A stretch of DNA of 64,000 nucleotides, taken from IMG/VR virus record IMGVR_UViG_3300042868_010462, positions 83,875 to 147,874 of that record; one strand, 5' to 3'. The DNA comes from a virus. Numbering within the stretch: the stretch's first letter is position 1; each line of letters opens with the position of its first letter. Below the pieces are notes generated by a model that made no database searches, was not told where the DNA came from, and saw nothing but the letters and a program-made list of their open reading frames with translations. A program made the position numbers and the translations under genes. Positions 1 to 38,445 of the stretch are shown one piece after another.

Positions 1-136
1 TAACCCAAGTATTCAACATCCTTATCTTCAAAGTAGGGTGGTAATCCCATATACTCATCCAAGAGTTGTTTGACCTTTTCAACTGTCGTTGCAGTTAGTA
101 CTGGGATTTTATCTTCCCTATCTACTATAAGATATA

Positions 137-517
137 TTAGTGCCATTGTTGTAAACTTTTATTTATATTAATTTTTGTCAATTTTTTTTTTCTTTTTTTT
201 TTATTTTTTTCTTTTCCTTTTTTTTCTTTTATTTTTTTTTCTTTTGTTTTTACGACTTCCACCAAATCCATTTCTGGGTCAGATAATTCTTGATAACCAA
301 ACATTGAAAAGTCAGAAATATAAGACCACCACTTTCCATCAAAAACATATCTTTCATGGTCTATTTTTGGTTTTTTATTGTCAATGCTTTTACCAAAATA
401 AATTCCATCCCATCCATCTCTTTTCCCTTCTATTGGTGGATTACCCTTGATAATTTTTACTAATCTACCATCTCTACTCTTGTAAGTTTTACCTACTTCT
501 AAAATTATATTTTCCAT
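137..517 (-). CDS. hypothetical protein with Lys-rich C-terminus
   Basis: ORF 137..685 trimmed to MENIILEVGKTY start, because the longer version overlaps the tRNA-like element. Confidence 0.6.
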   Translation of the reverse strand: MENIILEVGKTYKSRDGRLVKIIKGNPPIEGKRDGWDGIYFGKSIDNKKPKIDHERYVFDGKWWSYISDFSMFGYQELSDPEMDLVEVVKTKEKKIKEKKGKEKNKKKRKKKLTKININKSLQQWH

Positions 518-549
518 ATTTATAATTTTTATTTTTTTAAATAAGTTAG

Positions 550-630
550 TAGTCAGGACAGGATTCGAACTTGTGACGATAAACGCAGATGTGTACCTCA
601 TCTTGGCAGCTCCAATTCTGCCACCTGACT
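550..630 (-). pseudogene. degenerate tRNA-like element (anticodon position GTA)
   Basis: Acceptor stem AGTCAGG/CCTGACT, D-arm and GTTCGAATC T-loop present; anticodon loop AGGTACA is non-canonical and the T-stem has a mismatch. Confidence 0.6.
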
Positions 631-730
631 TTGTTTGTTTAAACTTTTCGGTTTTCCTATTCAAAACCTTAACGTCAGGCAACAATCTAAGTGTCAGCCA
701 CTACTTGTGAATTATTAGGTGTCACAACCA

Positions 731-961
731 TTAGAAATATTTTCTTGTAAGATATTCATCAGTTCCTAAACTTGGTGCGTTGTTATTTTCATCTAAATGA
801 AGAAACATAAATCCTTTGTAAGCGTTGGCTTCTAATAGAATCTTTTCAATCATTGTGATGATTCCAAGTTTTTCTTCCATCATAATGTTTGGATGGGCTA
901 ATTGTTCGTTAGCGAAGTTTTTAATCATCTCAACTTGGATTGTTTTTTTCTCTTTAGCCAT
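731..961 (-). CDS. hypothetical protein
   Basis: 76-aa ORF preceded by TATATTTG at 984-991. Confidence 0.7.
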   Translation of the reverse strand: MAKEKKTIQVEMIKNFANEQLAHPNIMMEEKLGIITMIEKILLEANAYKGFMFLHLDENNNAPSLGTDEYLTRKYF

Positions 962-1046
962 TGTGTTATTGTTTAAGTGTTCACAAATATAGAAATAGAT
1001 TTTTAATTACACAACCTTTGATGAATAATTTTGAGAAAAATATTTG

Positions 1047-1117
1047 AGCGGATAGTTGGTACTGCCCCAACTTATCTAGTTTGGAAGACTAGAACATTAC
1101 TTTTATGCTATGCCCGC
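1047..1117 (-). tRNA. tRNA-Gly(TCC), atypical T-loop
   Basis: Anticodon arm CTAGT-CTTCCAA-ACTAG; T-arm GTTGG-GGCAGTA-CCAAC. Confidence 0.8.
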
Positions 1118-1121
1118 TAAT

Positions 1122-1352
1122 TTACCTGAGATTCCAAATACCACCAGCAAAACACTTGAAGTCATTGTAACTTGTAACTCTTATAGGATTTTCTTCATAT
1201 TTCCACCTATTACAAGTTATATAGATTTCTCCTGTCCATTTATCCTTCTTGAGAAAGGTATAAATACCATTACGAGATTTGATATGGATTTTATCCCCAT
1301 TTTTGAGGTTCTTAAACTGAGACAATCTTATTTGTTCCATAAGTGATTCCAT
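1122..1352 (-). CDS. hypothetical protein
   Basis: 76-aa ORF between tRNAs, same strand. Confidence 0.6.
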   Translation of the reverse strand: MESLMEQIRLSQFKNLKNGDKIHIKSRNGIYTFLKKDKWTGEIYITCNRWKYEENPIRVTSYNDFKCFAGGIWNLR

Positions 1353-1369
1353 AGTATTTGAATAAAAAG

Positions 1370-1444
1370 TGGAGCCGGTATGAGGAATCGAACCCCATTA
1401 TCTTGATTACAAGTCAAGCACATCACCACTTATGCTTTACCGGC
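1370..1444 (-). tRNA. tRNA-Thr(TGT)
   Basis: Cloverleaf; CTTGA-CTTGTAA-TCAAG; encoded CCA. Confidence 0.92.
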
Positions 1445-1451
1445 ATTTATA

Positions 1452-1724
1452 TTATCTTCTTTTATAAACATAAGTTATTGTATCACCAATCTTATAAACA
1501 TCATTTCTCTTGGTTATAACAAACTCGTCACAATCAGTTGAATAATGATATCTTTTCCCATATTCAATGGTGGATGGTGATTCTGTAACATAAAATGTAT
1601 CTATTACACATCTTTTAACAATATCCCCATCTTCAATTTCATTATAGTTTGTTCTATTTAGAATTGAAGCTAATAAAACAAATGAAACAAAAAATAAAAA
1701 CAAACAAGGAATTAAATATTTCAT
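1452..1724 (-). CDS. hypothetical protein with N-terminal hydrophobic segment
   Basis: ORF track. Confidence 0.6.
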   Translation of the reverse strand: MKYLIPCLFLFFVSFVLLASILNRTNYNEIEDGDIVKRCVIDTFYVTESPSTIEYGKRYHYSTDCDEFVITKRNDVYKIGDTITYVYKRR

Positions 1725-1726
1725 CT

Positions 1727-1975
1727 TTAAACTTTTAACAAATAAATTAATAATGAACCCAAAGTATAACCAATACTGGAAGCCAAGGCCATCTTGATTC
1801 TTTCATTCCAATTCTTTGATTCAACCATATAACCAACAAATGGTAATCCCAAAAATGGCCCGATACAAGCCCAAAAAATCATCATAAAATCTCTATCAGC
1901 AACCGTTGCAATATACATAGTTGCGGCCAACTCAATAACAAATGATGCGATACCAATTATAATATATTTTTTCAT
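1727..1975 (-). CDS. small membrane protein
   Basis: Three hydrophobic segments. Confidence 0.65.
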   Translation of the reverse strand: MKKYIIIGIASFVIELAATMYIATVADRDFMMIFWACIGPFLGLPFVGYMVESKNWNERIKMALASSIGYTLGSLLIYLLKV

Positions 1976-2568
1976 AAATGTTTAATTACCCAATCCGCAA
2001 ACTTCTTTTGTCCTGATAAACTTACATGAACCCCATCACCAGCATCTTTGAATGTTACAGATGTATCCTTTGGAATTATAAGACAATTTTTCAAACCTGT
2101 CTTTGGGTCAACCATCAATTTTTGAAATTCAACATACCTTGCTCTACATCTATCAGTGGTCTCAGTACCATATACAGTTCTAACCATAACTTTGATGGGG
2201 TCATATCCAACAATAACAATCGGTTTAATCCCCCTCCTATTACAAGAATCAACCATCATCTGTATATTATTAACGGCACCCTGTAAGTTCACATAAGAAA
2301 AAGCATCATTACAACCCCCATAAATAAACACACTGGTAAACATTGAATCTCTCTTCAAATGGTCGTTAAGTGTTAATCTCATCCAATCCGTTCTCTTTCC
2401 ACCACTTGATTTATTTAAACTCTGATAACCGAATTCCTTGGCTACCATATCTTGCCAACCACCAGTATAACAAGTCAAACTATCACCGATGAATAATACC
2501 CTCAAAGGTGGGGTTGAAAAGGAAGTTAATAAAATAACACATAACAATAATAAACTAATTTTCTTCAT
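1972..2568 (-). CDS. SGNH/GDSL hydrolase with signal peptide
   Basis: FIGDSLT block I, GGCND block III, DGVH block V. Confidence 0.88.
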   Translation of the reverse strand: MKKISLLLLCVILLTSFSTPPLRVLFIGDSLTCYTGGWQDMVAKEFGYQSLNKSSGGKRTDWMRLTLNDHLKRDSMFTSVFIYGGCNDAFSYVNLQGAVNNIQMMVDSCNRRGIKPIVIVGYDPIKVMVRTVYGTETTDRCRARYVEFQKLMVDPKTGLKNCLIIPKDTSVTFKDAGDGVHVSLSGQKKFADWVIKHL

Positions 2569-2581
2569 AAAACAATTTTTT

Positions 2582-2659
2582 TGGTGGAGACAGTGAGAAT
2601 CAAACTCACCTCACAGATATTGCAAATATCCATCGCCAAGTCTTGGTACATGTGCCCCC
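2582..2659 (-). tRNA. tRNA-Ala(TGC)
   Basis: G3:U70 pair, TTTGCAA loop, CCA. Confidence 0.88.
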
Positions 2660-2667
2660 ATTTTTAT

Positions 2668-3189
2668 TTATAACCCAATTTCCTCCAAAGGTAAAACCTC
2701 AAAGAAATATTTACAACCAACATCTGTTATATATTCAAAAACATCCTTATAACAATCTTTATTGAAAAAATTACTTAAGACATAATAGTACTCAACTTGG
2801 ATACCGATTGGACTAAACAATTTTTTATATTGTCTTTTTTTGAAATTACAAGTTTGTAATTTCTCATCAACAGAACCGGCACCATTTTGGTATTTCTTTT
2901 CAATTATGTAGATGGTATTCCCCACTAATATTGCAGCATCAGGTAAAAGTTTTTTACTGATAATCGTATTGTGGTCAATATTATATCTACTTAACAATTT
3001 TTTGTACAGACCATATTTCTCAAAATATTCACCGACAATTATACCATTTTTTACAATTTGGTCTTGATTATCCATCACATAATCACTTTGTTCCACTAAC
3101 AATTTTTTTAGGTGTGTTGTAGCTTCAAAATGTAATCCGTTAACATTTGTGTTTGCACCCCCACCACTTTTGTTTGGCGTTCTATTCAT
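2668..3189 (-). CDS. PD-(D/E)XK nuclease-like protein
   Basis: LLPD...IIEKKYQ...GSVDEKLQ motif. Confidence 0.65.
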   Translation of the reverse strand: MNRTPNKSGGGANTNVNGLHFEATTHLKKLLVEQSDYVMDNQDQIVKNGIIVGEYFEKYGLYKKLLSRYNIDHNTIISKKLLPDAAILVGNTIYIIEKKYQNGAGSVDEKLQTCNFKKRQYKKLFSPIGIQVEYYYVLSNFFNKDCYKDVFEYITDVGCKYFFEVLPLEEIGL

Positions 3190-3205
3190 AGTTTTTCTTT
3201 TTTTG

Positions 3206-3290
3206 TGGTGGGAATGGAGGGATTCGAACCCCCTCAGCTAATACAAATGATTTACAGTCATCCCCGACTCTCCAGCTTCGGCGCACTCCC
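3206..3290 (-). tRNA. tRNA-Tyr(GTA)
   Basis: CTGTAAA loop, long variable arm, CCA. Confidence 0.92.
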
Positions 3291-3301
3291 ATTATAAATT
3301 G

Positions 3302-3376
3302 ATGCAGGAACGGGAGTCGAACCCGTATGGTACGGCTTATGAGACCGAGCTGGAACCACTTCCAGTCCATCCTGCA
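3302..3376 (-). tRNA. tRNA-Met(CAT)
   Basis: CTCATAA loop, GGTTCGACTCC T-arm. Confidence 0.85.
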
Positions 3377-3385
3377 TTGTGTTTG

Positions 3386-3457
3386 ACGCAAAGAAAGGAA
3401 TCGAACCTTTTACCTTTGGGTTATGAGCCCAATGTGCAACCACTACACTTCTTTGCA
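3386..3457 (-). tRNA. tRNA-Met(CAT), initiator-like
   Basis: TTGGG-CTCATAA-CCCAA anticodon stem with 3 G-C pairs. Confidence 0.85.
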
Positions 3458-3465
3458 TATATTTG

Positions 3466-3537
3466 TAGCCCGTAGGGGAGTCGAACCCCTCTTGCAAGAA
3501 TGAAAATCTTGAGTCCTAGCCGATAGACGAACGGGCC
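3466..3537 (-). tRNA. tRNA-Glu(TTC)
   Basis: Cloverleaf, TTTTCAT loop. Confidence 0.92.
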
Positions 3538-3548
3538 ATATTTGTTTG

Positions 3549-3622
3549 CGAGCTATAGGGGATTCGAACCCCTGGTCTTCAGCGTGACAAGCTGAAATGT
3601 TAAACCCCTACACCAATAGCTC
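3549..3622 (-). tRNA. tRNA-Asp(GTC)
   Basis: Cloverleaf, TTGTCAC loop. Confidence 0.92.
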
Positions 3623-3644
3623 TTTTGTATTAATTCTTCCCTCT

Positions 3645-3668
3645 ATGTCAATGAACTTTACAAAGTTA
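3645..3668 (-). promoter_or_regulatory. Bacteroidota-type -7 promoter (TAACTTTG) followed by boxA-like GTTCATTGACAT
   Basis: Directly upstream of tRNA-Asp; identical 12-mer at 9480-9491. Confidence 0.65.
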
Positions 3669-3675
3669 AACAATC

Positions 3676-4155
3676 TTATCCAATTTTCCAAGCACCATAG
3701 ATAACTTTTTTTCTCTGTAGTGCATCTTCTGTGTTTCCAATTACAACTCCATCTTTGATTGTGAAAGCATGACCCTTGATTGTAACAATGTAAGTTCCTT
3801 TTGAATACTTTTCCAAGAACTTAGCTGTTGTCATATTTCTCAAAACATTTCTTCCTTTCACCTCAACCCAATATGCCATTTGAATATCTTCTCTAATTGG
3901 TGTAACACCTTTACGATTGAACTTTATCTGTTTTGACGCAAGTGTATTCATAGTTAAACCAAAGAGTGCAGTCCCTTGTCTATTTTTTCTACCAAAAACC
4001 TCTGCCACTTTTTTGTGAGCATAGTCGTAAGTAACTCCAAACGCTGAAGCAAAGGCTCTGACGACACAATCGTCTTTCTCACTTTGAGCTAACTTCGATT
4101 CTGCAATCCCTTTGATGGCGACTGATGATGATATGTATGGTGTTTTCGTTTTCAT
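3676..4155 (-). CDS. hypothetical protein (DCVVRA...H motif, possibly papain-like fold)
   Basis: 159-aa ORF; TAACTTTG at 4160-4167, only 4 nt before ATG. Confidence 0.7.
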   Translation of the reverse strand: MKTKTPYISSSVAIKGIAESKLAQSEKDDCVVRAFASAFGVTYDYAHKKVAEVFGRKNRQGTALFGLTMNTLASKQIKFNRKGVTPIREDIQMAYWVEVKGRNVLRNMTTAKFLEKYSKGTYIVTIKGHAFTIKDGVVIGNTEDALQRKKVIYGAWKIG

Positions 4156-4199
4156 ATTACAAAGTTACAAAACCATTTTTAATTTCCAAACTTTGTGAT

Positions 4200-4235
4200 A
4201 AAAAAAAATCCATCTTTTTTTACGAAGATGGATTT
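4200..4235 (-). terminator. intrinsic terminator of putative attenuator 2
   Basis: AAATCCATCTT/AAGATGGATTT stem plus T-run. Confidence 0.8.
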
Positions 4236-4262
4236 GACATTATTAACACTCAAAACTTAAGT

Positions 4263-4334
4263 TCATACCATCTCCATCCGAGGATTTCTACCCTCAGCTC
4301 CAGTCGTTAAGTCCATATAGAGATTGCGTTTCAT
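4263..4334 (-). CDS. putative leader peptide MKRNLYMDLTTGAEGRNPRMEMV
   Basis: 23-aa ORF just upstream of the terminator; its 3' end is complementary to the terminator arm. Confidence 0.7.
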   Translation of the reverse strand: MKRNLYMDLTTGAEGRNPRMEMV

Positions 4335-4393
4335 TGAATTTCTTACTATTTTTTTATTAAATATAATGATATAACGGAAAAGTGTCAAGTATG

Positions 4394-4705
4394 TTACAAA
4401 AAAGATGAAATAATTTGTGCTACTTTATATCCTGTGAAGGCTCCCAATGCCGCAGAACCTGGTAAAACAAAGAACTTACCGAATAAACTTTCATATTTTG
4501 ACCTATTAACGATGTATGAAATTAGGATATAATAAAGAAAGAAGTTAATCAGTACAGCAATATCGATTTCCTTGGCCATAAAGACAACAATCGAGTTTCC
4601 AAAGAACCCCCAACTGAAGTTTATTAATGTCTCCCTGATTAATTCCCAAACTGATGTATTGGCATCAGCAACCTTAATTTCCCTTGTAAATAAATTATTT
4701 TTCAT
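4394..4705 (-). CDS. membrane protein
   Basis: Hydrophobic ORF. Confidence 0.65.
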   Translation of the reverse strand: MKNNLFTREIKVADANTSVWELIRETLINFSWGFFGNSIVVFMAKEIDIAVLINFFLYYILISYIVNRSKYESLFGKFFVLPGSAALGAFTGYKVAQIISSFL

Positions 4706-5211
4706 CCTATAAAATCGTCAAATCCGTTGTTACTTAAAAAATCGTTATCTTCATCTATTTCTCTTATCTCGAACTCAAAACTTGATACATTACAAACTAC
4801 ATCTTTAGTGAATGTTTCGTGTATATAATCAAAGTCATCTGGAGATATTTGAACTTGTTCATCTTTAAATAATTTGAAAAGTTCCTTTGTATTTCTGTAA
4901 AGATTTGGGTATTGATAAGTTTTCAAAATACCATCCATTTCGAATACTTCAAATCTTTTGTAAAAATTATCGTTGTACATTAGAATATGTTCCTGAGCCC
5001 ACTCATTAACAACTTGAAGAATGAATGTCTTTAAACCCTGCATACAAGCTACCCTATAGTCCTCATATTGTTGTTCAACAGTTAAACTACCAATCTCAAC
5101 ATCATCAACCTCTTCTTCATATTTGGCAATTGTATCCAAGGCCAACATCTGTAATTCATCCCAATTTGTTTGATGTATTTTATAAAAGTTTACAACTACC
5201 ATTTCTTTCAT
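4702..5211 (-). CDS. hypothetical acidic protein
   Basis: ORF track, overlapping stop/start. Confidence 0.7.
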   Translation of the reverse strand: MKEMVVVNFYKIHQTNWDELQMLALDTIAKYEEEVDDVEIGSLTVEQQYEDYRVACMQGLKTFILQVVNEWAQEHILMYNDNFYKRFEVFEMDGILKTYQYPNLYRNTKELFKLFKDEQVQISPDDFDYIHETFTKDVVCNVSSFEFEIREIDEDNDFLSNNGFDDFIG

Positions 5212-5231
5212 TATTAAAGTGTTATTTAATT

Positions 5232-5873
5232 TTATTCCTTCGAATCTGTATCGTAAAACATTAAGTCAGAGTCTTCGGTTGCCCATTTATTATGTCCTTC
5301 ACAATTATAATAATCTAAATTAACTAGATAATCAGGTTTCTCAGGAAAATCTTTTGTGACAAAAGAAGGTTCATTCCATCTTATTCTATTGTTGGGTTGT
5401 AAGGCAATTTGTCCATTATCTAATAAGATGATGTGATGACACTTGTGTTCCATAGGGTCTTCTGACAATGTTAAATCAGTATTCATATCACTTGAACCCC
5501 AGTTAATTGTGCCAAAATAATTTCCATCATACCATTTCTTATCTTTCATAAAAACTGAAACCCGCATCCCATATACAAAACTAAGTTGAATGAGGGAAAA
5601 GTTATATGAAAAACAATTCCATAATTGCAGAAAATGAAAAGACAAATCAGGATTTGGTGTCTCAGGTTTTGTCAATAGTGCATGAGATGGTAATTTGTCT
5701 CTCATTACACCATTGTTCAATAAAACCTGAAACAAAACCGCCTGGTTTGGCATACACCGAATCGAAGTAACAATTCCTTCTGTAAACTCACCAAATCCTT
5801 TTTGGTGCTGATACATATATTCATTTCGAACATAAACTTTAAGTGGGAAAAAATTACTTTCGATATAAGCCAT
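5232..5873 (-). CDS. hypothetical phage protein
   Basis: 213-aa ORF in operon. Confidence 0.75.
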   Translation of the reverse strand: MAYIESNFFPLKVYVRNEYMYQHQKGFGEFTEGIVTSIRCMPNQAVLFQVLLNNGVMRDKLPSHALLTKPETPNPDLSFHFLQLWNCFSYNFSLIQLSFVYGMRVSVFMKDKKWYDGNYFGTINWGSSDMNTDLTLSEDPMEHKCHHIILLDNGQIALQPNNRIRWNEPSFVTKDFPEKPDYLVNLDYYNCEGHNKWATEDSDLMFYDTDSKE

Positions 5874-5875
5874 AA

Positions 5876-6196
5876 TTAACTTGTTGGTATGTCATTTGAG
5901 CCATACTCTCTTATTAAATAGTCGGTAAAATCTTCTACACTTTCAACATTGAACTCAACTTCTTCGTGCCAGATTTTTTTATCAACATCATCATATAACC
6001 ACCAGCCAACTAAGTCCTGAATCCATCCGAATTGTTCGTCTTGTTTTTTTCTGAGGAGGGTCGGAATACTTTTTTCAAGTTGAGGAGTGGTGTTGTTAAG
6101 CTCAAGTAAATCAACTCCCAAACCATAGAGCCTATGTATCTTTTCATCGTATTCTTTAATTTTTAACAAAGTTTCGATTATGTATTCTCGTACCAT
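5876..6196 (-). CDS. hypothetical protein
   Basis: ORF track. Confidence 0.65.
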   Translation of the reverse strand: MVREYIIETLLKIKEYDEKIHRLYGLGVDLLELNNTTPQLEKSIPTLLRKKQDEQFGWIQDLVGWWLYDDVDKKIWHEEVEFNVESVEDFTDYLIREYGSNDIPTS

Positions 6197-6422
6197 TATA
6201 AGTATTATTTAAGTTGTTTGAAATATTTTGGAATTATTATCATACTACTGATGTAAAATGCAATAAACATTACACCATAAACTAATCCCTCGTTGAAATA
6301 GATACCCAAAACATATTTACTAATCAATAGCTGGGGTATCATAATCAAAAAGAAAACTAAAAAAGAAAAGAACACAGTTACAAATGTTTTCATCTCATTT
6401 TATTTTGTGGTTAAATAATTTG

Positions 6423-6495
6423 CAGGTCCCCAAGGATTCGAACCCTGACCGGATAGGTTGGAGCTATCAATGCTAAGCCATTACACTAGAGACCC
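6423..6495 (-). tRNA. tRNA-Trp(CCA)
   Basis: GATAG-CTCCAAC-CTATC; TATCTTTG promoter at 6515-6522. Confidence 0.92.
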
Positions 6496-6530
6496 ATATA
6501 TTTGCTTACTATTACAAAGATAAGAAAAAA

Positions 6531-7265
6531 TTAAAACTTTTTATATTTTTTATCCCAATTTTCAATCCTTTTTAAAAGTTCTTCCATTGTTATTGACGAA
6601 TTATCCTTTTTTATTGAATTATCTGAGAATAATAATAGATTACAATTCGCAGGATGGGATATAATCTTTGGGTTAATCTTATTTCGAAAACCATCCATCA
6701 CAGAATACATATGGTCTTTACTTACCCCTTTCAAATTATTCCGTTTGTTTGTTGGTGAATACCATCCATATTGTTCAACTAAAGATAAATCAAATTCATC
6801 TTTAAAATCTTGGATGTCAAACTTAAAAAAACAAGATGGTCTATAATACTCGTAATATGTTAATTTACAATCATTACATATTATTTTCAACTTTTCAGTT
6901 ACCTCATTAATTGAACAAATCTTACAAATCTTTTTAGTTTTAATCTTTTCCTTTCTGGGCTTGTTTTTTAAGGTCTCTGAAATCTTTTTTTTAGTTTCTT
7001 CAGTCAGTTTTCTATTTCTATTATTATACTGTATAGCACAAGAAGATGAACAAAAGGTATTAGGTTTACTAAAATATTTTTCAAATTCCTTTTTACAATT
7101 TTTACAAACTTGATTTTCCTTGTATATAACTTTTAAATTCAATCTACCCATTTTACAATTGATAGATTTGTAAGTCGTTCCCATAATTTCAGCAATATCA
7201 CCAGGTCTATAACCCTTCTCGACAAGTGAAACTAATTGTTTTATATTTTCATCATTCCATTTCAT
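6531..7265 (-). CDS. putative homing endonuclease (HTH, CxxC pairs, HNH-like C-terminus)
   Basis: SKDH...HPANC...N..K motif; NUMOD3-like TEETKKKISETLK; free-standing in the tRNA array. Confidence 0.65.
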   Translation of the reverse strand: MKWNDENIKQLVSLVEKGYRPGDIAEIMGTTYKSINCKMGRLNLKVIYKENQVCKNCKKEFEKYFSKPNTFCSSSCAIQYNNRNRKLTEETKKKISETLKNKPRKEKIKTKKICKICSINEVTEKLKIICNDCKLTYYEYYRPSCFFKFDIQDFKDEFDLSLVEQYGWYSPTNKRNNLKGVSKDHMYSVMDGFRNKINPKIISHPANCNLLLFSDNSIKKDNSSITMEELLKRIENWDKKYKKF

Positions 7266-7317
7266 ATATATAAATATCTAAGAAATGAGGAAAAGTAAAG
7301 AATCGAACTTTTTTTTG

Positions 7318-7391
7318 AGGTCGGGGAGGGAATCGAACCCCCCTAAAAATGATTTTGCAGGTCATTGCCTAAACCACTCGGCCACCCGACC
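7318..7391 (-). tRNA. tRNA-Cys(GCA)
   Basis: CTGCAAA loop, cloverleaf. Confidence 0.92.
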
Positions 7392-7543
7392 TTAATATTT
7401 CTTTTTTATCCCCCAACTTCACCCCACTCGTCAGTGGGGGAGTGGTTAGGTTGAGTCCGAACTTATACCTTGGGCTATTCGTTGGACAAAAAGACCACAG
7501 CAAGTGAGCAGTTCTAATGGGATGCTTCGTGGTACATTGAATG

Positions 7544-7618
7544 TGACCCTGGTGAGACTCGAACTCACGCTCCCTAAATTAAAAGTTTAGTGCTTTAAAC
7601 CAACTAAGCCACAGGGTC
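7544..7618 (-). tRNA. tRNA-Lys(TTT)
   Basis: CTAAA-CTTTTAA-TTTAG. Confidence 0.92.
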
Positions 7619-8176
7619 ATTAATCAAATTTTCTATTAGGATTCATTCCTCTCTTATAGTTCACACACAATCTATCTTTATCATCAAAGAAAGTATTGAC
7701 CATTGGTGTGCCCAATTTTATACCACAACCATCAGGTGCGAAACTACATAAACTTCTTGCACGACCATCCAAGTTTACATCTTCCAATAATCTCCACTCA
7801 ATTCCTGTCTCCACATCATAAACATAATCACCATCTCTCAATACATAAAGTTGGTTGTATCTGTTTCTCATTGATTCATAAAACTTCGCTGACATAGTGT
7901 TCATTAAAATTAAAACTTTCAACATAATTCGGTTGATTGAATGGTTAACTAATCCTGTCTAATTACATTCCCAAATCTACACAAAAGATTCATATATTTT
8001 ACTGTTTCCATCAAATAATTTTGATTTTTATCCATTAAAATAACAACCTCCATATCAATAATTGCTCTTACCTGAACCTCCTTGTTGTTGGGATTGTCAT
8101 CACCAAAATCAATAATTAAGTTGTCACCAACTTTAAACTCACCAATTTTTACCTTTTCCATAATAAATATTTTTTG

Positions 8177-8251
8177 TTGTTCCGGTGAGGCTCGAACTCA
8201 CGACTTCTACGGTATCAGCATAGTACTCTAAACCAACTGAGTTACGGAACA
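8177..8251 (-). tRNA. tRNA-Ile(GAT)
   Basis: CTGATAC loop. Confidence 0.9.
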
Positions 8252-8258
8252 ATGTTTG

Positions 8259-8332
8259 TGGTTCCATCAGGATTTGAACCTGAAACCCCTCCGTTATGAG
8301 CGGAAAGCTCTAACCACTTGAGCTATAGAACC
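8259..8332 (-). tRNA. tRNA(CAT), probably Ile2 (lysidine type)
   Basis: CTCATAA loop; body resembles Ile2 tRNAs; Met not excluded. Confidence 0.75.
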
Positions 8333-8346
8333 TTAAAAAAAATTTG

Positions 8347-8418
8347 TATGGGTGACCGGATTTGAACCGATGACCACTAATTCCCAAAATTAGCATTCTA
8401 CCTCTGAACTACACCCAT
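8347..8418 (-). tRNA. tRNA-Pro(TGG)
   Basis: CTAAT-TTTGGGA-ATTAG. Confidence 0.9.
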
Positions 8419-8588
8419 ATATTAAACAATTAAACCATATATAATTCCACATAGAAGAACAATTAGAAAAATAAGTCCTACTAAGAATAGGTCTGAGTTT
8501 CGTTTGAAGTGAGACAAAACTAAGAATAATATTCCAATTATCAAAAACAAAAGACCAATTAATAATAACATAATTTAATTTTTTTTTG

Positions 8589-8682
8589 CGGAGAACAGAG
8601 GTCTCGAACCCACACACCAGCTCATCACCGATGACATCTGATTTTCAAGACCAGGCCGATACCAATTTCGGTTGACTTTTCC
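8589..8682 (-). tRNA. tRNA-Ser(TGA)
   Basis: CTTGAAA loop, long variable arm, G73. Confidence 0.88.
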
Positions 8683-8690
8683 GTATTGTT

Positions 8691-8767
8691 TGGTGGTATG
8701 ATGGGACTCGAACCCACACATACATCATCCACAATGATGTCCCTCTACCAATTGGGGTACATACCAC
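8691..8767 (-). tRNA. tRNA-His(GTG)
   Basis: TTGTGGA loop. Confidence 0.9.
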
Positions 8768-8775
8768 ATATAGTT

Positions 8776-8851
8776 TGGTGGTGATGATTGGAATCGAACC
8801 AATATTAAACGATTTTCAGTCGTTCGCCTTGACCAACTTGGCAACATCACC
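8776..8851 (-). tRNA. tRNA-Phe(GAA)
   Basis: CTGAAAA loop, CCA. Confidence 0.92.
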
Positions 8852-8861
8852 ATAAAGTTTT

Positions 8862-8925
8862 GAGTAAGTATCCACCACGTTTAAGGCTGGCTGTGGACAG
8901 TGCTACCTACGACCTTTCCTTACTC
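8862..8925 (-). ncRNA. candidate small structured RNA
   Basis: GAGTAAG/CTTACTC closing stem, right after the TAACTTTG promoter (8931-8938) and before tRNA-Phe. Confidence 0.45.
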
Positions 8926-9390
8926 TTCTACAAAGTTACCATTTTTTTTTAATTTCCAAATATCTTTGTAAGTTTTTTTTAAAGTGGTCAAAATCCACCA
9001 CTTTAAGTTATTACTACACAATCCATAAAATGGTAAAAACCAATTAATGTAAAACTTGAACAATAAATTATTTTAAAAAAAATTTTGAATTTTACTTGGA
9101 TGTATGGTATTTGTTTTGTTTCTTTGTTAAACATTATTTCACTACTAAAAATTTAAAATTATGAACACACAATTGAGCACAACTTCAAAAATTATTGTTG
9201 GAATTATTTCTGTTGTATTATTATACAACGCTACTTACCTACTAGGAATTGTTGTAGGTTTTTTACAAGGTATTTTGGGTTAAAATTATTCTTTTAAAAG
9301 TAGAATTCGGATTTTATTTAAAAGTTCGAATTCTACTTTTATTATCTCTATTTCATTATACCAGGTAATAAAATCCCTCACTTTAGAATG

Positions 9391-9463
9391 TTCCCCCTGA
9401 TGGAATCGAACCACCATCCTCAGAATCAAAATCTGATGTAATCAACCATTATACCAAGAGGGA
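9391..9463 (-). tRNA. tRNA-Gln(TTG)
   Basis: TCAGA-TTTTGAT-TCTGA. Confidence 0.92.
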
Positions 9464-9479
9464 GTATTATTTTACCACG

Positions 9480-9491
9480 ATGTCAATGAAC
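9480..9491 (-). promoter_or_regulatory. boxA-like GTTCATTGACAT
   Basis: Exact copy of 3645-3656; lies between the terminator and the first tRNA. Confidence 0.55.
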
Positions 9492-9523
9492 AAAAAAAAC
9501 CCTGAACTTTATGGTTCAGGGTT
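9492..9523 (-). terminator. intrinsic terminator of putative attenuator 1
   Basis: AACCCTGAAC/GTTCAGGGTT stem plus T-run. Confidence 0.85.
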
Positions 9524-9547: not shown

Positions 9548-9655
9548 TTATAATTCTATAGAATTTCCCCAACCATTACAAACACTCGGCTTTGACCAAC
9601 AATTGCTAAATTGTGGCTGAACCGATATGTTAATATGTTTGAAGAAATTTTTCAT
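9548..9655 (-). CDS. putative leader peptide MKNFFKHINISVQPQFSNCWSKPSVCNGWGNSIEL
   Basis: 35-aa ORF upstream of the terminator; its 3' end is complementary to the terminator arm. Confidence 0.72.
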   Translation of the reverse strand: MKNFFKHINISVQPQFSNCWSKPSVCNGWGNSIEL

Positions 9656-37149: not shown

Positions 37150-38445
37150 GTGAAAAAAATTGTCATTTCTGAAGAAGAAAAAAAACATATAAAAGGTCTA
37201 TACAAAATTAATGAACAAGGAAAATCTCCTTTAGACATTATTTTTAGTACAGCATTAGATAAATTAGAAAAATTTAGAAGAGGTGAAATTGACCCTGAAG
37301 ATATGACAACATCTGATTCAACATCCGATAGTAGTGAATATGATTCTTCATTAGTATCAAGTTTCGAACCTGGAGAATTTTTTGTACATCCAAATGCTGA
37401 ATCTTTTAAAATTACTTACGGACCATCAGCAATAAAATTAAATTCACCCTCTGAATTGTTACTTAAAAGTATTTTTGCTCAAGCAAATACATCAAATTTG
37501 AAAGTTACAAGTACTTTAAGAACGTATGAAGACCAAGCGAGAGTTAATAAACAAAATAGTAGGTCAAATATAGCATCTTGGTATGGACAAGATGTGGTAA
37601 ATGTTTGGGATAAATATATGTCAGGTGAATTAACACAAAAACAATATGCTGATTTTTTAGAAGATAGAGATAAAAAAAGAGGTAAAGTTTTAAGTAACCA
37701 TATACCTGGATTTGCTATCGATGTTGCACCATATAGTGAACAATTTGCAAGTGCCGCAGAAAAATTAATGAAAACCCCAAACTCTGGGATAAGAAAGGTT
37801 CTAAGAGAAAAGAATAATAACGCTGTTCACATAGAATTCAATTTTCCTGTGACAGATAAAGGTGGTATTGGCACGATTCCAAAAATGCCATCAAAAAAAG
37901 AAGAAAAAAGATTTGATAAACAAATGTCTAAGGGGGGTATCATTGTTGATAAAAATAATAATACATCAAATTATGCAATTGTTTTCGGTGGTTCACCAAG
38001 TAGTTCATATGGTGCTCAGTTTATGTTTGATAAAGGTTCAAAAATACTTTCAGACAAAAATGTAGTTTATAGTAATTTTGAAAATTCATTGGACAATGTT
38101 TTGAATCAGATTAAATTACAAGACCCTAAGGCTAAAATAACTTCAGTAAGTGGATTTTCAGCTGGTGGTAAAAATGCTTGGGAGGCAGCAACTAAAGGTT
38201 ATAAGGTGGGTTTAATTGACCCAGTTGTACCTGATTTTGCAACTCAATTTGTTGGTTCTAATTTTAATGGTGAATTACCCTCAAACATCAAAATGATATC
38301 AAGACAAGAAAATTGGTCGGGGCAATTTAGAAAACATGGTGAAAGATTAAAAAACTTAGAGTCGACTCAACCTGAGGTACGAAGAAATGTTAAACATGCC
38401 GATATGCCAAGTCAATTTTTTAGTGACTTTAAAAACTTTGTGTAA
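37150..38445 (+). CDS. leader-bearing protein: peptidase M15-like region plus alpha/beta-hydrolase-like region
   Basis: TSTLRT..DQ, SNH..GFAIDV, HIE; GFSAGG. Confidence 0.65.
   Translation: MKKIVISEEEKKHIKGLYKINEQGKSPLDIIFSTALDKLEKFRRGEIDPEDMTTSDSTSDSSEYDSSLVSSFEPGEFFVHPNAESFKITYGPSAIKLNSPSELLLKSIFAQANTSNLKVTSTLRTYEDQARVNKQNSRSNIASWYGQDVVNVWDKYMSGELTQKQYADFLEDRDKKRGKVLSNHIPGFAIDVAPYSEQFASAAEKLMKTPNSGIRKVLREKNNNAVHIEFNFPVTDKGGIGTIPKMPSKKEEKRFDKQMSKGGIIVDKNNNTSNYAIVFGGSPSSSYGAQFMFDKGSKILSDKNVVYSNFENSLDNVLNQIKLQDPKAKITSVSGFSAGGKNAWEAATKGYKVGLIDPVVPDFATQFVGSNFNGELPSNIKMISRQENWSGQFRKHGERLKNLESTQPEVRRNVKHADMPSQFFSDFKNFV

Follow-up and report, generated by a model that had tools for sequence, protein, structure and literature searches.

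The window, the whole stretch of DNA analyzed here, is the final 64 kb of a 147.9-kb IMG/VR virus record; its G+C content is 30.6%. A tRNA region on the minus strand occupies positions 1-9500. Two leaders belong to it, each consisting of a promoter-like motif, a short open reading frame (ORF) and an intrinsic terminator, and each followed by an array of tRNA genes. Leader 2, the subject of this report, lies between a gene for a 103-amino-acid protein and a gene for a 159-amino-acid protein, beyond which the tRNA array begins (Table 1). A Pfam search gave no match for either flanking protein.

Within leader 2 four RNA segments can be named by analogy with classical attenuators. Segment 2, the candidate antiterminator strand, is made of the last codons of the ORF, and in the window the stop codon follows 2 nt past its end. 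Segments 3 and 4 are the two arms of the terminator. Segment 1 lies early in the ORF and has a potential partner that overlaps segment 2. A second ORF that overlaps the stop codon of the first (ATGA, 4266-4263) encodes 7 amino acids and is not conserved; we rejected it as a gene.

Table 1. Leader 2 and the genes that follow it, in window coordinates
Feature	Position	Strand	Details
Leader promoter	4360..4388	minus	TTGACA (4388-4383), 17 nt, TATATT (4365-4360); A-rich 5' UTR next
Leader ORF	4263..4334	minus	23 codons and TGA, MKRNLYMDLTTGAEGRNPRMEMV; ATG 4334, TGA 4265-4263
Candidate segment 1 (anti-antiterminator)	4317..4324	minus	ATCTCTAT, codons 4-6; potential partner ATGGAGAT (4277-4270)
Hairpin P1	4278..4297	minus	CTGAGGGT-AGAA-ATCCTCGG, within the ORF, codons 13-19
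Segment 2 (antiterminator strand)	4268..4279	minus	GGATGGAGATGG, codons 19-23, CGG ATG GAG ATG GTA
ORF-to-terminator spacer		minus	27 nt
Intrinsic terminator	4200..4235	minus	11-bp stem, 8-nt loop (4224-4217), nine T (4208-4200)
Terminator 5' arm (segment 3)	4235-4225	minus	AAATCCATCTT
Terminator 3' arm (segment 4)	4216-4206	minus	
Bacteroidota sigmaA-type promoter motif	4160..4190	minus	TTTG (4190-4187), 19 nt, TAACTTTG (4167-4160)
159-aa gene, first downstream	3676..4155	minus	phrog_3754 match, 2e-23
Start of tRNA array A	3206..3622	minus	Asp(GTC), Glu(TTC), Met, Met, Tyr(GTA); later Ala, Thr, Gly, Arg and two Leu

Results

Pairing between the end of the ORF and the terminator

The original prediction placed the two strands of a transcriptional switch in the last codons of the ORF, GGATGGAGATGG at 4279-4268, and in the terminator 5' arm at 4235-4225, and both can be read directly on the minus strand. 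It further proposed that these codons carry two overlapping complements of TCCATCT in the arm. Two overlapping registers do exist, but neither is perfectly complementary, as each includes one G.U pair. The reverse complement of TCCATCT is AGATGGA; the sequence present, GGATGGA (4279-4273), pairs over 7 bp with one G.U. In the second register GGAGATGG (4275-4268) pairs with CCATCTTC (4231-4224) over 8 bp, also with one G.U; written as RNA, this is GGAGAUGG:CCAUCUUC.

The best duplex is predicted at -10.4 kcal/mol, compared with about -10.6 to -11.4 kcal/mol for the terminator hairpin, and the minimum-free-energy fold of the whole leader contains the antiterminator pairing. How often would such a duplex arise by chance? 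In 300 dinucleotide shuffles of the upstream RNA an equally good one appeared 24 times (z -1.7). The pairing in the window alone is within the chance range and proves nothing by itself; what gives the argument weight is therefore a set of 23 further variants, together with a control on terminators across the genome. For this control we took the 32 terminators predicted in the phage genome and compared the energy of the best upstream complement of each 5' arm with the energy of the hairpin. The leader-2 terminator comes second, its ratio being 1.04 where the median is near 0.5. The sole terminator above it sits in a glycine-repeat coding region.

Relatives of leader 2

A blastn search of positions 3600-4800 against 50,697 phage records gave no match in cultured-phage DNA. 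tblastn with the 159-aa protein returned only proteins of 25-33% identity from Pseudomonas and Vibrio phages, which are of no use for comparing leaders. IMG/VR relatives with the same module were reached through the upstream 103-aa gene, and far more diverged copies came from a scan of metagenome contigs with a pattern derived from the promoter alone, which is blind to the RNA part of the element. In total we collected 28 unique elements and aligned 24 of them (alignment A1). Matches to the promoter pattern that lacked a short ORF were unrelated sequences, and none of the matches joined a leader-like ORF to a different terminator. A second scan pattern, based on hairpin P1, added false positives only (L080-L082).

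The variants form three clades. Clade A contains those that resemble the window; clade B consists of L068, L087, L124, L128, L133 and L137, and clade C of L083, L084, L092, L106, L113, L122, L127, L134 and L139. Between clades the 5' halves of the ORF can hardly be aligned and the peptide sequence is poorly conserved. All 24 aligned variants have an ORF of 22-24 codons that starts with ATG and ends at the same place with an in-frame UGA, UAA or UAG. The 5' UTR (24-28 nt) and the spacer (21-27 nt) vary in length regardless of frame. Judging from the peptide sequences alone, we rejected a small membrane toxin or a RiPP precursor: the peptide is too short and poorly conserved, and it is not hydrophobic along its whole length.

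The antiterminator pairing across variants

In 24 of 24 variants, the best upstream partner of the terminator 5' arm is the last three to five codons of the ORF, ending 2-7 nt before the stop codon or, in L092, overlapping it. The predicted energies of these duplexes span -9 to -15 kcal/mol and those of the terminators -10 to -14; z scores of the duplexes run from -1.7 in the window down to -4 in clade C. Three registers are in use: GGAGAUGG:CCAUCU[UC]C, GGAUGGA:UCCAUCU and GGA-AUGGG:CCCAU(C)UCC. Clade A uses both overlapping registers and clade B the GGA-AUGGG:CCCAU(C)UCC register. Clade C forms a perfect 8-bp duplex, GGAGAUGG:CCAUCUCC, with z scores of -2.9 to -4.0 apart from the weakened L122 (-0.9). 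Because GGAGAUGG is common to clades A and C, the pairings in these two clades are not independent inventions.

Between clades A and B three strands change together: U becomes C in the terminator 5' arm, A becomes G in the 3' arm and A becomes G in the leader strand. Strict two-sided covariation of the antiterminator amounts to this one event. Where one register is damaged the other is left intact, L009 and L120 having lost one and L012 the other. The strands CCATCT and AGATGG are invariant, and the spacer that adjoins them is scrambled. A G in the third position of a codon (G88 in alignment A1) is likewise invariant although the codon may be GAG or GGG. Invariant strands and a fixed third position despite a codon change argue that the constraint acts on the RNA and not on the peptide.

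RNAalifold, applied to a MAFFT alignment, recovered the terminator stem, which is kept in 24 sequences with two compensatory pairs. It found the terminator only, because the registers of P1 and of the antiterminator differ in the three clades. Per-sequence duplexes and constrained folds therefore replaced column-based covariation counts in our analysis.

Hairpin P1, segment 1 and the competing folds

Most variants have P1, with compensatory changes CUGAAGAU/AUCUUCGG and CUGAAGCG/CGUUUUAG. It may serve as a pause hairpin, or it may be a helix nested inside the pairing of segments 1 and 2. That 1:2 pairing joins AUCUCUAU (codons 4-6) to AUGGAGAU in the window, over 8 bp in constrained folds, and 71 of 300 shuffles do as well (z -0.7). 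Its clade C equivalent, AUAUCAUAC:GGUAUGAUAU, has z scores of -3 to -4.4; in clade B the pairing is weak.

We folded 13 variants in states that a transcribing and translating complex might impose. When a ribosome footprint was masked at the stop codon, the terminator formed in all 13. When the nascent RNA was cut before the 3' arm, the antiterminator formed in most of them. Among the constrained folds, the one that combines the 1:2 pairing and P1 with the terminator was the most stable in 11 of the 13; in the window and in L133 the antiterminator fold had a slight advantage.

Leader peptides and the tRNA arrays

The tRNAs that follow leader 2 (array A) are specific for D, E, M, Y, A, T, G, R and L, and those between leaders 1 and 2 (array B) for Q, F, H, S, P, I, K, C and W. 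After the initial Met, the leader 2 peptide has 22 residues, 17 in the array-A set and 2 in the array-B set. The leader 1 peptide has the opposite composition: 4 of its 34 residues after Met are in the array-A set and 23 in the array-B set. Against the phage proteome (48% A, 39% B), the binomial P values for leader 2 are 0.005 for array A and 0.002 for array B; Fisher's exact test on the leader-by-array table gives 5e-7. The other two frames give A/B counts of 12/7 and 12/7 in leader 2 and of 13/13 and 15/16 in leader 1. Base composition does not explain a bias that appears in the reading frame only. G-rich stems do favor GNN codons (A, D, E and G), which inflates part of the match. Codons 5-14 of leader 2 (L Y M D L T T G A E) form a run of ten consecutive array-A residues.

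When clades are compared, the residues of the leader follow the tRNAs of its array. In clade C the leaders contain Ile-Ile and no Tyr, and one variant also has Phe; the arrays downstream have tRNA-Ile(TAT) and no tRNA-Tyr, which lies in the upstream array, and they include tRNA-Phe in that one variant. The L083 homolog of leader 1, MRTINKHMVIISKSQFRNCWYPRVQINGSDLCIG (minus orientation, about 1890-2060), gains R, Y, V and N, and behind it lie tRNAs for Arg, Tyr, Val and Asn that are missing from array B of the window. The match is statistical, not perfect. Leader 2 contains Asn, Lys, Pro and Val; its codons CGC and CGG are not read by the tRNA-Arg(TCT) of the array; and in some relatives a tRNA-Gln or tRNA-Val is found in the array with no matching change in the leader.

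Several observations concern the annotation of the arrays. ARAGORN missed a tRNA-Ala(TGC, G3:U70) and a tRNA-Gly(TCC) at about 2658-2582 and 1117-1047 on the minus strand of the window. The Gly gene matches the Rfam tRNA model with 40.7 bits; the Ala gene gives a weak clan-level match, and its anticodon loop was read by eye. Conversely, ARAGORN reported an 82-nt 'tRNA-Tyr' (630-549) and, with its threshold relaxed, a 'tRNA-Stop(tta)' that lies some 480 nt ahead of the window. The Rfam tRNA model matches neither. These two are probably tRNA-like RNAs and not working tRNAs. In several phages a conserved box, GTTC[AT]TTGA[CA]AT, precedes the first tRNA of both arrays (window 9490-9478; L083, L011, L133); it may be a precursor start or a processing signal.

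Leader 1 of the same phage

The original prediction held that the geometry of leader 2 matches that of leader 1 despite unrelated sequence, and this agrees with what we find. Leader 1 (9655-9496) has the same order of parts: a promoter-like motif comes first, then a short ORF whose last codons contain an antiterminator strand, then a terminator and finally a tRNA array. The composition of its peptide matches its own array. The best partner of its terminator arm lies at 9577-9559, 9 nt before the stop codon at 9550; 4 of 300 shuffles were as good (z -2.6). Leader 1 differs from leader 2 in having an unrelated sequence and an ORF of 35 codons. It also differs in what follows: tRNA-Gln begins 32 nt after the terminator, with no recognizable promoter between them.

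Two kinds of promoter and the likely host

The leader promoter is the best sigma70-type match in 12 kb, agreeing with the consensus at 11 of 12 positions. AACTTGACAC...TATATTTAATWAAAA is kept in all family members, whatever the upstream gene. Because AACTTGACAC persists where that gene differs, the promoter box belongs to the element. It is not of the host sigmaA type (TAnnTTTG), and the primary sigma factor of Bacteroidota would not be expected to use it. A search of the half-complete record for a phage sigma factor found only a weak Sigma70_r2-like ORF. This ORF, of 255 amino acids (C1:41969-42133, about 42 kb before the window start), scores 17 bits against Sigma70_r2, below the cut-off. 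By its sequence it might be a candidate phage sigma factor that reads the sigma70-like leader promoter.

A different promoter motif lies beyond the terminator. The primary sigma factor of Bacteroidota recognizes promoters of the type TTTG-N19-TAnnTTTG, with the -7 box at -12 to -5 (PMC9723704). In the window, TTTG-N19-TAACTTTG starts 9 nt past the T-run, and its -7 box ends 4 nt before the ATG at 4155. With the box in this position (4167-4160), the mRNA of the 159-aa gene would be leaderless; L060 and L137 keep the spacing. Such a motif follows the terminator in 25 of the 28 unique elements, and two of the other three are on contigs that end too soon; the distance from terminator to motif is 7-12 nt, or about 85 nt in L068-like variants. 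The genome contains 17 matches to TTTG-N19-TAnnTTTG, as against 5 in shuffles. Near-identical copies of the motif, TTTGGAAATTAAAAA...GTAACTTTG, are found at 4190-4160, at 8960-8930 (minus) and at about -4212, that is, 4.2 kb before the window start.

A Shine-Dalgarno-like motif precedes only 9 of 170 ORFs. Taken together with the Bacteroidota-type promoter motif, this scarcity suggests that the host of the phage is probably a member of the Bacteroidota. The position of the motif has a further consequence: with a predicted sigmaA-type promoter between terminator and array, the leader-2 switch cannot be the sole gate, and the downstream genes are not strictly dependent on read-through.

The 159-aa gene is absent in some relatives, where tRNA-Asp comes directly next. 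tRNAs lie downstream within reach in 24 of the 28 unique elements, and the array begins with tRNA-Asp in 22 of these 24 (Glu in L092, Met in L122). In PAK_P1-like Pseudomonas phages, too, homologs of the 159-aa protein (phrog_3754) are encoded next to tRNA genes and terminators (phiMK 38053-38382), and the function of this protein may be related to tRNA.

Across the genome about 35 start codons are preceded, at a distance of 10-25 nt, by a third motif, ATATTTATA, which often directly follows a terminator (for example at window 48419, 47191, 45171, 22808 and 15400). It is absent from the tRNA-array promoters and is probably the phage's own middle or late promoter class. A 643-aa DnaK/Hsp70-like gene (window 25713-23782, minus) is 62-68% identical to genes of uncultured huge phages of 630-735 kb (LR745206, LR756501).

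Discussion

A proposed ribosome-operated switch

The position of the pairing, the invariant strands, the geometry, the peptide composition and leader 1 together lend comparative support to the interpretation of leader 2 as a switch. With a confidence slightly above even, we favor a specific form of it: leader 2 would be a ribosome-operated attenuator of the trp/ilv type that feeds read-through into the tRNA-Asp/Glu/Met/Tyr array. Given the anatomy, conservation, alternative pairings and composition that we observed, we infer that the ORF is translated, that ribosome and polymerase are coupled and that transcription reads through, with the following physiological logic.

The conserved promoter would start a short RNA that encodes the 23-residue peptide. 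Pairing of segment 2 (GGAUGGAGAUGG) with segment 3 would exclude the terminator hairpin 3:4. A ribosome that translates smoothly to the stop codon would cover segment 2, allowing the terminator to form and ending the transcript at about 150 nt. If no ribosome loads, segment 2 would probably be held by the strand in codons 4-6, and termination would likewise follow. A ribosome stalled within codons 4-14 or so, all of them served by the downstream tRNAs, would leave segments 2 and 3 free to pair. Polymerase would then read through to the 159-aa gene and the tRNA-Asp/Glu/Met/Met/Tyr... array. The outcome would be a feedback loop in which slow decoding of the array's codons leads to more phage tRNA.

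How would such a switch work beside a second promoter? Read-through would add to array expression from the host-type promoter and may replace that promoter later in infection. Two routes are conceivable, an early one from the host-type promoter and a later one by attenuated read-through from the phage-specific promoter. As the leader promoter is close to the sigma70 consensus, the hypothesis could be tested in ordinary laboratory strains.

Other explanations of the locus

The chief competing explanation is that leader 2 is a stand-alone mini-gene, producing a 23-aa peptide or a small RNA of roughly 150 nt, whose terminator merely insulates the sigmaA-type promoter of the array against transcription from upstream. 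The complementarity between ORF end and terminator arm would then have no regulatory role, or would only shape the fold of the RNA. The compact run of promoter, ORF and terminator, with a separate promoter directly after it, is what one would expect of such a gene. So is the preference of 11 of the 13 folded variants for the state with the 1:2 pairing, P1 and terminator, and the antiterminator pairing of the window taken alone lies within the chance range. What a mini-gene leaves unexplained is why the terminator arm always has its best partner in the last codons, why an invariant shared strand sits beside a variable spacer, why this terminator is an outlier among the 32 in the genome, and why array amino acids are enriched in the reading frame only, with the opposite composition in leader 1. 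A functional peptide, moreover, is hard to square with poor peptide conservation between clades. We judge the mini-gene unlikely.

The pairing could also be fortuitous, a complementarity of the G-rich coding end with the terminator that has been passed on by common descent and has no switch function. The shuffles that equal the window's duplex (24 of 300) and the sharing of GGAGAUGG by clades A and C, which are not independent inventions, fit this idea. Yet clade B pairs in a different register with a matching base change, L009 and L120 on one side and L012 on the other each keep one register when the other is spoiled, and the strands stay invariant against a background of 30.6% G+C while the neighboring spacer is freely scrambled. 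With the rank of second among 32 in the terminator control, these observations lead us to give chance very little credence. A different kind of control would be a promoter-proximal terminator that RNA polymerase passes because it has been modified or is assisted by a phage antitermination factor, as at lambda PR'-tR' with Q, the ORF being incidental. A large phage of lytic type, a promoter followed within about 150 nt by a terminator with genes beyond, and a leader promoter that is not of the host type are all in keeping with such a factor. We identified no antiterminator gene and no recognizable loading site, however, and the ORF is conserved in length, frame and composition. Processive antitermination, furthermore, needs no conserved alternative RNA pairing. 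This explanation we regard as very improbable.

A possible sensor of the demand for tRNA

The reason for which phages possess tRNA genes has been a matter of debate for decades. Two roles that have been proposed are codon compensation and the evasion of host defenses that cleave tRNA (PMC10264068, PMC11464382). How the expression of phage tRNA genes is controlled is not addressed in the papers found by our full-text search. The same kind of search brought up no account of tRNA genes, in phages or in cells, being controlled by leader-peptide attenuation, which is no proof of novelty. A flavobacterial transcriptome study reports strong clues that such attenuation operates ahead of amino-acid biosynthesis operons (PMC9723704).

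If the attenuator reading of leader 2 is true, the demand for tRNA would be sensed directly, by a leader peptide that reports how the array's own codons are decoded. The phage would boost exactly those tRNAs at which ribosomes stall, for example after their depletion by host shut-off or by anticodon-nuclease defenses. A more general proposal can be held only tentatively, with a confidence just short of even: that large phages of the Bacteroidota type regulate their tRNA arrays homeostatically, each array being headed by a multivalent attenuator written in the codons that its tRNAs read. The arrangement gives a signature that can be searched for in other phage genomes, namely a short ORF whose last codons contain an antiterminator strand, followed by a terminator and a tRNA array.

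Comparison with known leaders

An Rfam search found only tRNAs at gathering score. The models Trp_leader, His_leader, Leu_leader, Thr_leader and T-box had no match up to an E value of 10, and a T-box or riboswitch, which we had considered, is without Rfam support. The best match of 4287-4200 is the PyrR binding site (RF00515), with 24.3 bits against a gathering score of 54 (E = 0.26), so leader 2 is not a member of that family. The PyrR site is likewise a terminator/antiterminator leader, but it is operated by a protein and has no leader ORF.

The closest parallels are the leader-peptide attenuators of enterobacterial amino-acid operons, trpL, hisL, thrL, leuL and, above all, the multivalent leaders of ilvGMEDA and thr. 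Leader 2 appears to share with the trp, ilv and thr leaders a short leader ORF, an intrinsic terminator, mutually exclusive 2:3 and 3:4 pairings and a candidate 1:2 helix. In the mechanism proposed here it would also share the favoring of termination by a ribosome at the stop codon, and sensing codons that are cognate to the controlled product, for several amino acids at once. It has no sequence relationship to the leaders of amino-acid operons and differs from them in four further ways. The genes downstream are phage tRNA genes and not genes for biosynthetic enzymes, so that what is sensed would be a molecule of the same kind as what is made. Segment 2 is part of the ORF, in its last codons, and does not come just past the stop. 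In place of runs of one codon, the ORF uses about ten different codons of the array. Finally, a separate promoter stands between the attenuator and the genes.

The pheM leader of pheST offers a parallel of another sort, a leader peptide that senses the supply of charged tRNA and controls genes of the decoding machinery. Leaders of the pheM type control an aminoacyl-tRNA synthetase through one amino acid, whereas leader 2 would control tRNA genes through many. If this is true, classical attenuation would extend from amino-acid supply to tRNA supply.
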